From Minisyncoccota bacterium (GTDB lineage Bacteria > Patescibacteriota > Minisyncoccia > Phycocordibacterales > UBA9973), in NCBI GenBank assembly GCA_025453495.1, contig JALOQM010000004.1, forward strand, positions 28,990-92,989: DNA of 64,000 nucleotides, in the 5' to 3' direction. Within the stretch, counting starts at the first letter, position 1. Every line of letters starts with the position of its first letter. Of this stretch, positions 4,093-57,266 are shown piece after piece. A model generated the notes under the pieces. The model worked only from the letters and a program-made list of their open reading frames with translations, had not been told where the DNA came from and searched no databases. Both the position numbers and the translations under genes were made by a program.

Positions 4093-4249
4093 CGAACTAT
4101 TTTTTTGTTTACTTTTTTGTTTCTTCGTAAATTCCGATTAAAAATTAGCATGAGTATATACTTTTGTCAATATACCGCGATATGAAGATCTAATGCAAAA
4201 AACCAAGGTGTACCCTTGGTTTTTTGCATTATTTTGTATTCCTTAACTA

Positions 4250-12896: not shown

Positions 12897-12903
12897 TTTC
12901 TAT

Positions 12904-12943
12904 CCCACCAAAAAATCCCGCAGCTGCGGGATTTTTTGGTGGG
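12904..12943. terminator. Bidirectional terminator; 40 nt perfect palindrome
   Basis: cccaccaaaaaatcccgcagctgcgggattttttggtggg is a perfect palindrome with A-run and T-run flanks. It sits between convergent genes 12572-12856 (+) and 12948-13520 (-). Confidence 0.6.
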
Positions 12944-12947
12944 ATAA

Positions 12948-19164: not shown

Positions 19165-19590
19165 GTTTTGAGCCAGATAGTTGCTCTTTGATGTATATCA
19201 AAGAGAGGAAAGTCCGAACACATAACGATTCAATTCGTATAGGTAATGGGTAATTCCCATACGGAGCAATCCGCGAGGTGCGAGCAGAGACGCTTGCAAG
19301 CGAAAGTGCGCAAGCGTCCCGACTTCGGTCGGGACGAGTTCTCAAGGTAACTTGAGAGGTGAAACGGCTAAATCCTTACCCGTGTGCAAGGCCGTGTTCC
19401 CCACTACTTTAAACAGTTATATGAATACTCTATGTAGTAATGAAATAAAAATTATCGCATACGCATACTCACATAAGTTTTTAAAGTAGTGGGGAAAGTG
19501 CCGCTTGAGGCCGACGGCAACGTCGGTCCCAGATAAATGACTATCGTCTGGGTAACCAGATACAGAATTCGGCTTATAGGCTCAAAACTA
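19165..19590 (+). ncRNA. rnpB: RNase P RNA (bacterial type A-like)
   Basis: Universally conserved GGAAAGTCCGAACAC near the 5' end and ACAGAATTCGGCTTATAG near the 3' end. P1 pairing gttttgagcc (19165-19174) with ggctcaaaac (19579-19588). Contains an AT-rich extended hairpin insertion (ccccactacttta...taaagtagtgggg, about 19377-19500). Terminator hairpin at 19596-19626. Confidence 0.85.
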
Positions 19591-19595
19591 ACATG

Positions 19596-22168: not shown

Positions 22169-22566
22169 GTATTCTTTAACCTAACTAACTCCTTTCGTCG
22201 TTTTTTCTAGGATTGTCTTATTATGTACTGAGTTTTTCTTTTCGCCTCCCGCTTTTTCTTGCATGCGGAGTCTGCCTAATAACTATCCTGCATGTTCAGC
22301 TGTAAAGCGAAATATACTCTTTTTGTAATTAATTACTTGTTACAGTTAGAGGCAGACAAGTCCTCGCAGCGAAGAAAGCGGAAATGCGTGAGTAATTCAT
22401 GCAAAAGCCAGAACCCTACCACTATGCACACTGCGCAAGCGAGTAGCGAGCCGTAGTAATTTTTCAGCAGAAAAATACGCGTGTGCATAGTGGTAGGGTT
22501 AAAACAAGAACACGGTATATTCAATAACTACTACATAGAAAACGATCATGAGAGTCACACGACTAT

Positions 22567-22610
22567 GTACAGATAAAAAGCACCCGAGCAGGTGCTTTTT
22601 ATCTGTACAT
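22567..22610. terminator. Bidirectional terminator, 19-bp-stem palindrome immediately 3' of nrdJ
   Basis: tgtacagataaaaagcacc-cgagca-ggtgctttttatctgtaca seen directly. Confidence 0.55.
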
Positions 22611-40042: not shown

Positions 40043-40116
40043 CGCGAGTGATGGGACTTGAACCCACGACCTTCCGCGTGACAGGCGGACGCTCTAACCA
40101 GCTGAGCTACACCCGC
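40043..40116 (-). tRNA. tRNA-Asp (anticodon GTC)
   Basis: Hand fold: acceptor GCGGGTG/CACTCGC, anticodon loop CTGTCAC, T-arm GTGGG-TTCAAGT-CCCAT, discriminator G. Confidence 0.85.
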
Positions 40117-40174
40117 AATTCTGGTTACTTTTCGAACATAGGCACTGTAGCAATTTTCGCGCCCATATTCAATG

Positions 40175-40248
40175 TGTCGGCGGGTGGAATCGAACCACCG
40201 ACCTTGGGCTTATGAGTCCCACGCTCTAACCGACTGAGCTACGCCGAC
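40175..40248 (-). tRNA. tRNA-Met (anticodon CAT), elongator type (G1-C72 paired)
   Basis: Hand fold: acceptor GTCGGCG/CGCCGAC, anticodon loop CTCATAA, T-arm GGTGG-TTCGATT-CCACC. Could alternatively be a lysidine-modified tRNA-Ile2. Confidence 0.75.
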
Positions 40249-40271
40249 ATATATGTATTTATCAAACCATG

Positions 40272-40343
40272 TTGCGGGGGCCGGATTCGAACCGACGATC
40301 TCAAGGTTATGAGCCTTGCGAGATACCACTTCTCCACCCCGCG
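40272..40343 (-). tRNA. Initiator tRNA-fMet (anticodon CAT)
   Basis: Acceptor CGCGGGG...CCCCGCA A with the C1:A72 mismatch diagnostic of bacterial initiator tRNA. T-arm GTCGGTTCGAATCCGGC almost identical to E. coli tRNA-fMet. Confidence 0.85.
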
Positions 40344-40673: not shown

Positions 40674-42440
40674 ATGCTACACTATACCCCTATGGAACAG
40701 GAAAAACTGAACAATCAGAGACACACACTCGCGCACCTGCTCGCTCAGGCAGTGATTGAACATTATCCGAGCGCAAAGCTCACCCTCGGCCCAGCGGTCG
40801 ACAACGGTTTCTATTACGATATCGATTTCGGCGGAGAAAAAGTAACCGACGCCGATTTGCAGAAACTGGAAGCAACGATGCGCAAAAATCTTCCAAAGTG
40901 GACTGCATTCACCCACCAAGAAGTAACGAGAGACGAAGCGCTCACACAGTTTGACGGCAATGAATACAAAACTGAACTCATAAACGAAATCGCTGATAGG
41001 GGCGAAACCATTATCCTTTATACCTGTGGCGGTTTCACCGATCTATGTCGCGGCGGCCACAGCGACCACCCCGTAGACGAGATTGATGCTGAATCGTTCA
41101 AACTCGACCGCGTCGCCGGCGCCTACTGGCGCGGTGATGAAAAGAACAAGATGCTCACCCGTATCTACGGTCTCGCATTCGCGACAAAAGTAGATCTTGA
41201 TGCATTCATCTTCCAGCAAGAAGAAGCCAAGAAGCGTGATCACCGCAAGCTCGGCAAAGAGCTTGGTCTTTTCATTTTCTCAGAACTCGTCGGCCCCGGC
41301 CTTCCTCTCTGGACACCGAAAGGCACGCTCGTCCGTGAACTTTTGAACGATTATGTCTGGGAACTCCGCAAACCACGAGGCTACCAGAAAGTGACAATTC
41401 CACACATCACAAAGAAAGAACTTTACGAGACATCCGGCCACTGGGCAAAATACGCCGAAGACCTCTTCAAGATCAAGACGCGCGAAGATCACCTCTTTGC
41501 CATGAAGCCAATGAACTGCCCACACCACACGCAGATCTTCGATGCTGAACAGCGTAGCTACCGTGACATGCCGCAGCGCTACGCCGAGACAACCATGGTG
41601 TACCGTGACGAGCAGTCCGGCGAGCTCTCGGGTCTTTCGCGTGTGCTTTCTATTACTCAAGACGATGCACATGTCTTCTGCCGTGAAAACCAAATAGAAG
41701 ACGAAACAATGGCAATCTGGGATATCATCGAAACTTTTTACGGCACGTTTGGCTTCAAGCTCCAGGTGCGCTTTTCGCGCCATGATCCATCGACACCGGA
41801 GAAATATCTCGGTGGCGAAGAAGTCTGGGCAAAGGCAGAAGGAGCACTCAAGAATCTCATGGAAAAGAAAGGCATCACTTGGATTGACGGCATCGGCGAG
41901 GCGGCATTTTATGGACCAAAGATAGACTTCATCGCTCGTGACTCAATCGGCCGCGTGCTCCAGGTTGCGACAATTCAGCTTGACTTCAACCAACCAAAAA
42001 GCTTCGGTCTTTTCTGTATCAATGAACAGGGAGAAAAAGAGCAGGTCGTGATGATCCACGCGGCAATCATGGGATCGATTGAGCGCTTCATGTCAACACT
42101 CATCGAGCACTACGCTGGTGCATTTCCACTTTGGCTCTCTCCTGTGCAGGTAGCAATACTTCCAATTTCCGACAAGCATAGTGAATACGCGCGAGATGTA
42201 CTCGGGAAACTCAAGGCATCGGGCATTCGCGCCGAGATCGATGATTCACGTGAATCGCTTGGCAAAAAAATCCGCGCCGCAAAAACACAAAAACTACCTT
42301 ATCTCATCGTCATCGGTGACAAGGAAATGGAATCACAGACAGTCACACTCGAAGGACGCAACGACGAAAAGCACGAAGGTATTACATTTGATGCCACTCT
42401 CATATTACTTAGAGAAAAAATAGACAACAAGAACAACTAA
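40674..42440 (+). CDS. thrS: Threonine--tRNA ligase (short form lacking the N-terminal TGS domain)
   Basis: 588 aa. Begins in the editing domain (RHTLAHLL...GPAVDNGFYYDIDF), class II catalytic core and C-terminal anticodon-binding domain. Confidence 0.9.
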   Translation: MLHYTPMEQEKLNNQRHTLAHLLAQAVIEHYPSAKLTLGPAVDNGFYYDIDFGGEKVTDADLQKLEATMRKNLPKWTAFTHQEVTRDEALTQFDGNEYKTELINEIADRGETIILYTCGGFTDLCRGGHSDHPVDEIDAESFKLDRVAGAYWRGDEKNKMLTRIYGLAFATKVDLDAFIFQQEEAKKRDHRKLGKELGLFIFSELVGPGLPLWTPKGTLVRELLNDYVWELRKPRGYQKVTIPHITKKELYETSGHWAKYAEDLFKIKTREDHLFAMKPMNCPHHTQIFDAEQRSYRDMPQRYAETTMVYRDEQSGELSGLSRVLSITQDDAHVFCRENQIEDETMAIWDIIETFYGTFGFKLQVRFSRHDPSTPEKYLGGEEVWAKAEGALKNLMEKKGITWIDGIGEAAFYGPKIDFIARDSIGRVLQVATIQLDFNQPKSFGLFCINEQGEKEQVVMIHAAIMGSIERFMSTLIEHYAGAFPLWLSPVQVAILPISDKHSEYARDVLGKLKASGIRAEIDDSRESLGKKIRAAKTQKLPYLIVIGDKEMESQTVTLEGRNDEKHEGITFDATLILLREKIDNKNN

Positions 42441-42528
42441 ATACTTTATCCTTTCCTTATTTTCCTCTTGCTATACATATTCCAACATTCGAACGAATGT
42501 TGGAATATGTATTTTGCAACAACGCTAT

Positions 42529-42804
42529 ATGGAAAAACAAAAAGACCATAGAAAAATCAAAAGGATTATTAAAGGTTTCGCAAATAATTGGCGAATTAGA
42601 ACAATGGCATTACTCAAAGAAACCCGACTTTCTGTTGGTGAAATTTCAGAAAATCTCAAAACTGATTTTAAAAACATTTCAATTCATATCACTAAACTGG
42701 CTATTGCCGGTATTGTCATAAAACGATACCAAGGTAGAGAAGTGCACCTCAAGCTTACTGCTCGCGGCGAGAACATTCTAACATTCATTCGAATGTTAGA
42801 ATGA
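42529..42804 (+). CDS. ArsR/SmtB-family winged-helix transcriptional regulator
   Basis: First ATG at 42529 (the ORF-track start at 42514 is TTG). RIRTMALLKETRLSVGEISENLKTDFKNISIHITKLAIAGIV matches the ArsR HTH pattern. Gene is bracketed by related palindromes at 42473-42512 and 42774-42803. Confidence 0.65.
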   Translation: MEKQKDHRKIKRIIKGFANNWRIRTMALLKETRLSVGEISENLKTDFKNISIHITKLAIAGIVIKRYQGREVHLKLTARGENILTFIRMLE

Positions 42805-42931
42805 GGCAAAAGTAATACGATGAGAATCGTGATAGAATGAGCAAGTGAATTGATTAGGTCTTAAGTGGGACCGCAACCAAGGTCCGCAAACCTAGCAAGA
42901 CGAGAATATTAATACTTAATTATTTATATAT

Positions 42932-43126
42932 ATGTTTTCAAACAATCTCTACAACCTCATGATGCAAGCAGTTGAAGAGCACAAAAGTCTCTGGCGTATC
43001 AAGGATGATTATATACAAGACGCTGCAGCAGCACCGGAAGCCAAAACGTATTGGGAAAAGATGATACGCGAAAAAGAAGCGCATATCACCGAACTCACTG
43101 CGCTCATCAAAAAAGAATTAGCGTAA
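42932..43126 (+). CDS. Hypothetical small protein (possible target of the adjacent regulator)
   Basis: 64 aa, ATG start. Followed by a strong terminator (43138-43166: aaaaaccacccgaacgggtggtttttt). Confidence 0.45.
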   Translation: MFSNNLYNLMMQAVEEHKSLWRIKDDYIQDAAAAPEAKTYWEKMIREKEAHITELTALIKKELA

Positions 43127-43179
43127 CCACCTCCCACAAAAAACCACCCGAACGGGTGGTTTTTTGTGACACAGTAGTC

Positions 43180-57129: not shown

Positions 57130-57207
57130 AAATAAAGGTAAGTATTGTCACCACTATAGCAGTTTGTGGTGATACTGCAAAGTAAAGGATAAAAAAGATT
57201 GGTAAAT

Positions 57208-57247
57208 AAAAAAGCATCGTGTGGTGTTGCAACGATGCTTTTTTATT
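57208..57247. terminator. Bidirectional terminator hairpin
   Basis: aaaaaagcatcgtgtggtgttgcaacgatgctttttt seen directly. Confidence 0.55.
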
Positions 57248-57266
57248 TGCAGTTGAATAAAGAGCA

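Follow-up and report, generated by a model that had tools for sequence, protein, structure and literature searches.

The locus described here lies in a window of 64,000 nucleotides from an uncultured groundwater Minisyncoccota bacterium (contig JALOQM010000004.1; the window is the whole stretch of DNA that was analyzed, and coordinates count from its first letter) and consists of a small regulator gene with a palindrome at either end. The gene, delineated by its open reading frame, sequence profiles and an AlphaFold2 model, occupies 42529..42804 on the forward strand and encodes a 91-amino-acid (aa) protein predicted to adopt the winged-helix ArsR/SmtB fold; its start, the ATG at 42529, is backed by comparison across the family. 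Just upstream lies the first palindrome, the proposed operator O1 (42473..42512), while the second, which contains the proposed operator O2 (42775..42802), overlaps the TGA stop codon of the regulator (42802-42804). The module is preceded by thrS and followed by a gene for a 64-aa protein. A first-pass annotation, made from the sequence alone, had described an ArsR-like regulator gene bracketed by two related palindromes, with the small downstream gene as its target; both genes are present as it described them.

A database protein identical to the regulator is annotated as 'Candidatus Pacebacteria', a lineage of the Candidate Phyla Radiation. Against profile libraries the protein scores 21.1 bits with Pfam HTH_5 (cut-off 22) and 42.3 bits (5e-11) with the NCBIfam ArsR/SmtB model NF033788 (cut-off 55). 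A profile built from ten family members recovers HlyU from the PDB (7e-11) and then CadC, CzrA, SmtB and NolR, and nearly all the listed homologues carry a precomputed PF01022 match. The AlphaFold2 model has a predicted local distance difference test (pLDDT) score of 92, with helices at residues 2-17, 20-31, 36-43 and 47-59, strands at 63-68 and 71-76, and a closing helix at 78-90, i.e. the order alpha1-alpha2-alpha3-alphaR-beta1-beta2-alpha5 that is canonical for ArsR/SmtB proteins; Foldseek aligns it to HlyU, CzrA, CadC and NolR with template modeling (TM) scores of 0.85-0.89. The modeled fold thus places the protein in the ArsR/SmtB superfamily, and together with the PDB profile matches it bears out the ArsR-like identity first given to the gene.

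Metal ligands in the ArsR/SmtB proteins are supplied by a Cys-x-Cys motif in alpha3, or in alpha5 by Asp/His-x-His ... His-x-x-Glu/His. The window regulator has no Cys at all, its His residues are confined to positions 7, 53 and 74, and helix alpha5 (78-90) is devoid of His, Cys and Asp. The absence of Cys, and of His and Asp from alpha5, precludes every known metal or persulfide sensor site of the family. Judging by the absence of these defining residues, the protein is predicted to fall outside both the metal-sensing and the persulfide-sensing subgroups, and a metal signal, as was earlier entertained, is unlikely. The family to which it belongs is large: 3,478 protein clusters are retrieved at E-values up to 1e-8, by their source names mainly from Patescibacteria, and none of the relatives was found in viral contigs.

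Both palindromes are perfect. The arms of O1 (42473-42491 and 42494-42512) are 19 nt long, 100% complementary and 2 nt apart, and they embed a conserved 28-bp core at 42479-42506 (ATTCCAACATTC-GAAC-GAATGTTGGAAT); the lengthening to 19-nt arms is peculiar to the window genome. The second palindrome has 13-nt arms (42774-42786 and 42791-42803), again 100% complementary and 4 nt apart, and O2 within it (ATTCTAACATTC-ATTC-GAATGTTAGAAT) takes up codons 83-91 of the regulator (ILTFIRMLE, in helix alpha5) together with the first base of the TGA. The shared core AACATTC...GAATGTT is present in both and nowhere else in the 64 kb: the pattern AACATTC-N(0-10)-GAATGTT occurs twice against an expectation of 0.01. 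A search of the window for further copies returned none, the 28-mer ATTCYAACATTC-N4-GAATGTTRGAAT having no third copy there even with 3 mismatches and the half-site no enrichment elsewhere; scattered copies, which would be the mark of a repeat element, are therefore absent from the window. The perfect arms, and the overlap of the second palindrome with the stop codon, are as the first-pass annotation had them. It had also called the length and perfection of O1 unusual for an operator, which calls for a caveat: the window has some 23 palindromes able to form hairpins with arms of 12 nt or more, so that length alone sets neither O1 nor O2 apart. Bidirectional terminators, in which an A-run, a GC core and a T-run succeed one another, make up nearly all the rest (terminator-type perfect palindromes lie between convergent genes at 12901-12946, 22565-22610, 4191-4231, 57204-57248, 43135-43168 and elsewhere), and the window genome relies heavily on bidirectional intrinsic termination. 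O1 and O2 are distinct from these in being AT-rich, in sharing a core and in that one of them lies inside coding sequence.

The same arrangement recurs in homologous loci. We gathered 15 distinct homologous genes from public genomes and metagenomes, encoding proteins 47-76% identical to the window protein, by protein similarity alone and never through the DNA motif. In 14 of the 15, exactly 2 nt of the stop codon lie beyond the end of a 28-bp site of 12-4-12 layout; in all 15 a matching site upstream ends 10-65 nt before the ATG. The consensus is ATTC-N4-NTTC-N4-GAAN-N4-GAAT, with three classes of core: TTC-N4-GAA, TTT-TGCA-AAA and TCC-NTAA-GGA. The ATTC and GAAT tetranucleotides are spaced by N4, N12 or N20 and never by N8, and in most of the homologous sites the arms are mismatched at 1-5 of their 12 positions. 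Within a gene the two sites are identical at 23.7 of 28 positions, against 18.2 of 28 for sites from different genomes, and none of 100,000 permutations of the pairing reached the observed total. Even idiosyncratic features are shared within a pair: locus L017 has ACATCC..GGAAGT, and L031 has GCAT ends, in both of its sites; membership in the TTC-N4-GAA or the TTT-TGCA-AAA class is likewise common to both members of a pair. Comparison with L021, whose regulator is the closest to that of the window (76% identity), shows both sites preserved amid non-coding DNA that has diverged. Site classes also track the protein: FKT and FKN variants of the recognition helix go with TTC..GAA cores, and YEN variants with TTTTGCAAAA; relatives of the latter class have a single Cys in alpha5.

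Locus L013 encodes two regulator paralogs (385-663 and 2514-2792), 1.9 kb apart on one contig, each with its own matched variant of the site pair. The stop-codon site is repeated there over 33 nt, 540 bp downstream and between unrelated flanks. Elsewhere, an identical 28-mer stands 3 nt before the ATG of the second zinc-ribbon paralog in L016, and an extra site lies 108 nt upstream of a membrane-protein gene in L006. These extra copies in L016, L013 and L006 support the existence of a small local regulon, as far as can be predicted from the placement of the sites. A third, orphan site in L013 (1178-1205) lies upstream of a TspO-like gene. Two of the loci, L016 (3263-5760) and L020 (1207-4984), contain tandem paralogs encoding cysteine-rich proteins of 230-590 aa without any Pfam or NCBIfam match, all of which start with M-x-x-E-x-K-N-C-Q-N-C-K-x-D-F-V-I-E-P-D-D-F-G-F-Y-E-K-I; in L016 each is preceded by the putative operator of the regulator. 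Overall, the genes downstream of the regulator homologs are unrelated to one another: they encode a histidine phosphatase, an endonuclease III family protein, an FAD oxidase, a NadA operon, glycosyltransferases and proteins without known function.

The stop-codon site coincides with a stretch of protein that makes up most of helix alpha5: it is translated as I-L-x-F-x-R/K-x-L-E/Q/K, with the T of the stop as its last base. Among synonymous codons, in counts to be read as a few events rather than fourteen, those that preserve the palindrome are fixed: at the site Ile is encoded by ATT in 12 of 12 cases (46% elsewhere in the same genes) and Glu by GAA in 8 of 8 (63%), Arg by NGA and Phe by TTC in 7 of 7 each within the TTC..GAA class (33% and 41%), and Phe by TTT in 6 of 6 within the TTTTGCAAAA class (59%). 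A natural control for the in-frame site is provided by L023, the only gene of the 15 without one: it ends in a similar peptide, VLKFVKLLK, written in codons that break the palindrome, and its second site falls in the 38 bp that separate it from the gene that follows. The codon usage thus argues that the stop-codon site is selected as DNA and not merely as protein. The nine shared codons apparently shape the choice of amino acids too, as peptide and core go together: F-x-R with TTC-N4-GAA, F-C-K with TTT-TGCA-AAA and S-I-R-K with TCC-ATAA-GGAA. A literature search of limited reach turned up nothing relevant on an operator inside the 3' end of a regulator's own gene, and no earlier description of an in-frame operator at a regulator's own stop codon conserved across a family.

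A scan of the interval from each upstream site to its ATG for the best pair of sigma-70-like hexamers places the -35 element inside the site in most loci (scores of 8-11 out of 12), as a central TTTGCA or an outer TTGGAA/TTGAGA; this layout would be that of a classic repressor occluding its own promoter. The -10 element ends 6 nt before the ATG in eight loci, which suggests leaderless or near-leaderless transcripts. By analogy with these homologs we place a tentative regulator promoter at 42488..42515 of the window (forward strand), with a -35-like TTCGAA (42488-42493) at the center of O1, a 16-nt spacer and a -10-like TATTTT (42510-42515) 13 nt before the ATG. Overlapping the stop-codon sites, no consistent promoter candidate was seen in any locus, and for this reason the notion of O2 as the operator of a downstream promoter was dropped in favor of an exit, roadblock or auxiliary operator. 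The stop-codon site is locked to the stop of the regulator whatever the distance to the next gene (2 to 278 bp); because it is anchored to this stop, and not to a downstream promoter, O2 is interpreted as an exit operator of the regulator gene. Only 3-13 nt separate the site from the next gene in seven loci, gaps that point to likely co-transcription.

Thus, O1 and O2 are probably operators of the ArsR/SmtB-type regulator encoded between them, with autorepression at O1 and exit control at O2. We infer that the regulator binds both sites, that binding is repressive and that O2 acts at the gene exit. Under this proposal the regulator, probably as a dimer or a pair of dimers, would bind O1, which covers its promoter region, and thereby shut off its own transcription. 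At O2, the same 12-4-12 site in the codons of the C-terminal helix, the bound repressor would sit at the exit of the gene, where it might either roadblock polymerases running into the downstream gene or strengthen repression from O1 as an auxiliary operator. DNA looping between the two found no specific support, the O1-O2 distances being without helical phasing. The dimeric repressor acting on both sites, as proposed in the first-pass annotation, is favored by the conserved, co-varying pair of sites and by the promoter-like match under the upstream site of most homologs; its further element, regulation of the 64-aa gene, is no more than plausible.

Several observations weigh against this interpretation. 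The promoter match over O1 in the window is weak (7 of 12), no consistent promoter overlaps any O2-type site, and the center-to-center distances between the paired sites (286-345 bp) show no helical phasing. The spacings of the tetranucleotides lack the N8 of the box read by the best-matching subgroup of characterized regulators, which is considered below. The co-variation and the codon counts overstate the number of independent events, since the loci are phylogenetically related, and for the codons this leaves a few events, as mentioned above. Finally, the search for further copies covers 64 kb of the source genome.

The genes on either side bear on how the module came to its present position. 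The upstream neighbor, outside the module, is thrS (40674..42440, forward strand), a 588-aa open reading frame for threonyl-tRNA synthetase (ThrRS); the syntenic thrS genes in L007, L009 and L010 encode the tRNA-synt_2b and HGTP_anticodon domains. A cluster of three tRNA genes lies just upstream of it (40043-40343). Downstream, the 64-aa protein (42932..43126, forward strand) is defined by 23 homologs and an AlphaFold2 model (pLDDT 95) of a two-helix hairpin, with Glu16, His17, Glu49 and His51 among its invariant or near-invariant residues. It has no Pfam or NCBIfam match, and a Foldseek search of the PDB gives only generic helical hairpins at E-values above 0.7; helices of encapsulated-ferritin and rubrerythrin type are among the non-significant PDB matches (E above 1). 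A bidirectional, intrinsic-terminator-like palindrome with perfect 16-nt arms (CACAAAAAACCACCCG and CGGGTGGTTTTTTGTG; 43135..43168) closes the unit, and L007, L009 and L021 have its counterpart behind their 64-aa genes.

Between the regulator and the 64-aa gene lies a spacer of 127 nt (42805..42931, forward strand), with an extended -10-like TGATAGAAT at 42830-42838 and a nested hairpin stretch of about 52 nt (~42857-42908; AGGT..GGACC..GGTCC..ACCT) that alignment shows to be absent from L021. L021 has TTGATA-16-TACAAT, a good match to a promoter, at the equivalent place beyond O2; neither this nor the TGATAGAAT of the window overlaps O2. A riboswitch or leader RNA in the spacer was considered and rejected: an Rfam scan gave no match at the gathering threshold and only noise at E-values up to 10, the fold has a z-score of -1.7, and the hairpin stretch is missing from L021.

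In all genomes examined the 64-aa gene adjoins thrS. Only 6-10 bp part its start from the thrS stop in L007 and L009, which have no regulator there; relative to these genomes, 42441-42931 of the window is an insertion or a deletion. In L010 two other small genes occupy the junction (1936-2475), one encoding 116 aa and the other 61 aa with CxxC...CxxC motifs; the thrS|64-aa junction looks like a hotspot for the insertion of small genes. Among the genomes examined, the regulator cassette is present at this junction only in the window and in L021/L022, whose contigs come from the Hainich groundwater wells. Between the window and L021 the regulators are 76% identical and the 64-aa proteins 83%, whereas ThrRS is only 51% identical; the ThrRS of L021 is closer to those of L010 (73%) and L009 (62%), and L010, the closest by ThrRS, has no regulator at the junction. 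With L021 nearer to L010 and L009 by ThrRS, yet so similar to the window by regulator, the distribution of the cassette is patchy: it was either gained more than once or transferred, or else lost several times. The mismatch in identities suggests lateral movement of the cassette or of thrS. The 64-aa gene may have been brought under control of the regulator, e.g. through read-through. The first-pass claim that it is the target is weakened, with no regulator at this place in L007 and L009, the second site tied to the regulator stop, and a promoter of its own before the 64-aa gene in L021.

A bolder extension of the proposal, which we regard as rather unlikely, is that the regulator and its two sites form a self-contained, transferable control cassette, the exit operator traveling inside the C-terminal helix and repression being imposed on the downstream gene. 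Were this so, the operator and helix sequences would constrain each other's evolution as a dual code, and it would be clear why only some genomes have the cassette between thrS and the 64-aa gene and why the downstream genes are so varied.

The palindromes might instead act as hairpins in RNA or single-stranded DNA, O1 terminating thrS transcripts and O2 terminating or stabilizing the regulator mRNA. The RNA of O1 has a folding energy of -28 kcal/mol (z -9.6), with UUUUG behind it, and that of O2 one of -16.5 kcal/mol; moreover, the inserted segment parts thrS from the terminator at 43135-43168, so that a new terminator after thrS would be useful. What the homologs keep, however, is specific bases (ATTC, TTC/GAA or TTT/AAA, and GAAT) and not pairing, as their mismatched arms attest, and the stop-codon site of L006 folds at only -7.3 kcal/mol (z -1.4). 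The O1 site of L021, the nearest relative, has neither the 19-nt arms nor the T-run, no T-run follows O2 in the window, and a terminator consensus scan did not call O1. The common sequence of the upstream and downstream sites within a genome would also be left without an explanation. We accordingly consider hairpins very unlikely to account for the pair, although the extended hairpin of O1 may additionally terminate thrS transcripts in the window genome.

There is a similarly slim chance that the sites are real and are read by something else, i.e. another transcription factor, or RNA polymerase itself using them as divergent -10 and -35 boxes. The outer hexamers TAGAAT, TATAAT and TAAAAT do resemble -10 elements, and TTGGAA and TTTGCA -35 elements. 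Against this, the site classes follow the classes of the regulator's own recognition helix (FKT/FKN with TTC..GAA, YEN with TTTTGCAAAA), and the two L013 paralogs each have a matched pair of their own; plain promoter elements would need neither two-fold symmetry nor an in-frame copy at the stop codon.

Slightly less probable still is that the palindromes are recombination or mobility sequences bounding a portable cassette, comparable to integron attC or dif-like sites, with their similarity maintained by recombination. To this the presence or absence of the cassette at one junction, with other small genes there in L010, the disparity between regulator and ThrRS identities, and the displaced 33-nt copy in L013 would lend themselves, as would a 14-of-16 inverted repeat (42458-42473 / 42893-42908) flanking the cassette; for the mobile element or recombination site that the first-pass annotation had raised as its alternative, only the patchy occupation of the junction speaks. 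Yet the palindromes do not mark the ends of the inserted segment (42441-42931), the 64 kb hold no further copy, and none of the neighboring genes encodes a recombinase. Throughout the family the site forms in-frame codons of a structural helix, and co-variation extends to both halves of the upstream and the stop-codon site, whereas recombination would leave hybrids; the 14-of-16 repeat is about what chance would yield in an AT-rich search space of 1.6 kb. A search for terminal inverted repeats or a target duplication around the insert produced only this repeat and a loose ATACTT match, with no definable duplication.

A few further features of these genomes were observed in passing. The contigs of L001 (1-283) and L003 (1-462), from replicate samples of one groundwater well, have the regulator locus in common, but some 240 bp upstream of it all similarity ends, right behind the third codon of a divergently oriented 108-aa gene; this is a strain-level rearrangement breakpoint, and the L002 contig ends at the same point. 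In L006 (2790-3150; Parcubacteria CG1_02_44_31, MNWK01000036), and also in L018, the real ychF gene is preceded by two decoys in tandem, each ~120 bp long and with an AT-rich leader, an ATG, the first ~14 codons of ychF and then a hairpin, GTCGAGTCCCG...CGGAACTCGAC; these could stem from repeated duplication of the 5' end or from a small insertion element aimed at the ychF start. The window also encodes a bacterial class A RNase P RNA (19165-19592).

To our knowledge, there has been hardly any work on how genes are regulated in the Candidate Phyla Radiation (Patescibacteria), since its members are not in culture, and a literature search of limited reach found nothing on ArsR-type regulators from Patescibacteria. 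The module described here would be in kind an ordinary self-regulating repressor, and its layout recurs across a large family of relatives. It offers for this family a testable motif, ATTC-N4-NTTC-N4-GAAN-N4-GAAT, along with the variant with the TTTTGCAAAA core, and it presents an uncommon arrangement in which a DNA regulatory site and a structural protein helix occupy the same nine codons. If O2 is indeed a roadblock or an auxiliary operator, the arrangement would let a very small genome link regulator and cargo in little space; if the regulator does not bind, the co-variation of the sites calls for another explanation.

The closest known systems are the autorepressors SmtB, CzrA, CadC and ArsR, which have 12-2-12 inverted-repeat operators over their own promoters. 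The window module is like them in fold and size, in the palindrome of ~26-28 bp at its own putative promoter and in having the regulator gene come first, before the cargo. It differs in the absence of the alpha3 and alpha5 metal ligands, in the 12-4-12 site with ATTC/GAAT ends, in the second site lying in frame in the last nine codons of the regulator, and in downstream genes unrelated to metal resistance. Within the superfamily, the SqrR/BigR/HlyU/YgaV subgroup reads an ATTC-N8-GAAT box (bioRxiv 10.64898/2026.05.15.721447; PMC9774250). This subgroup provides the best sequence and structure matches of the window regulator, and the same tetranucleotides mark the putative sites; the spacings of the window family (N4, N12 and N20) are however not those of the SqrR box, and the window protein, having no Cys, lacks the persulfide-sensing Cys pair.

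More distant parallels come from the controller (C) proteins of restriction-modification systems, Xre-type helix-turn-helix proteins whose C-boxes are all upstream of the gene. The resemblance lies in a small, autoregulating DNA-binding protein, in palindromic boxes and in a portable unit placed before varied cargo, whereas the window regulator is a winged-helix protein and no restriction-modification genes adjoin it at the locus. A precedent for auxiliary operators inside coding sequence is presented by lac O2 within lacZ and gal OI within galE. As in those systems, the putative operator recurs within an open reading frame, a few hundred base pairs downstream of the one at the promoter. Unlike them, the window regulator gives no sign of tetramerization or phasing, and the reading frame that hosts the second site is the repressor's own gene, with the site locked to its stop codon and constraining its C-terminal helix.

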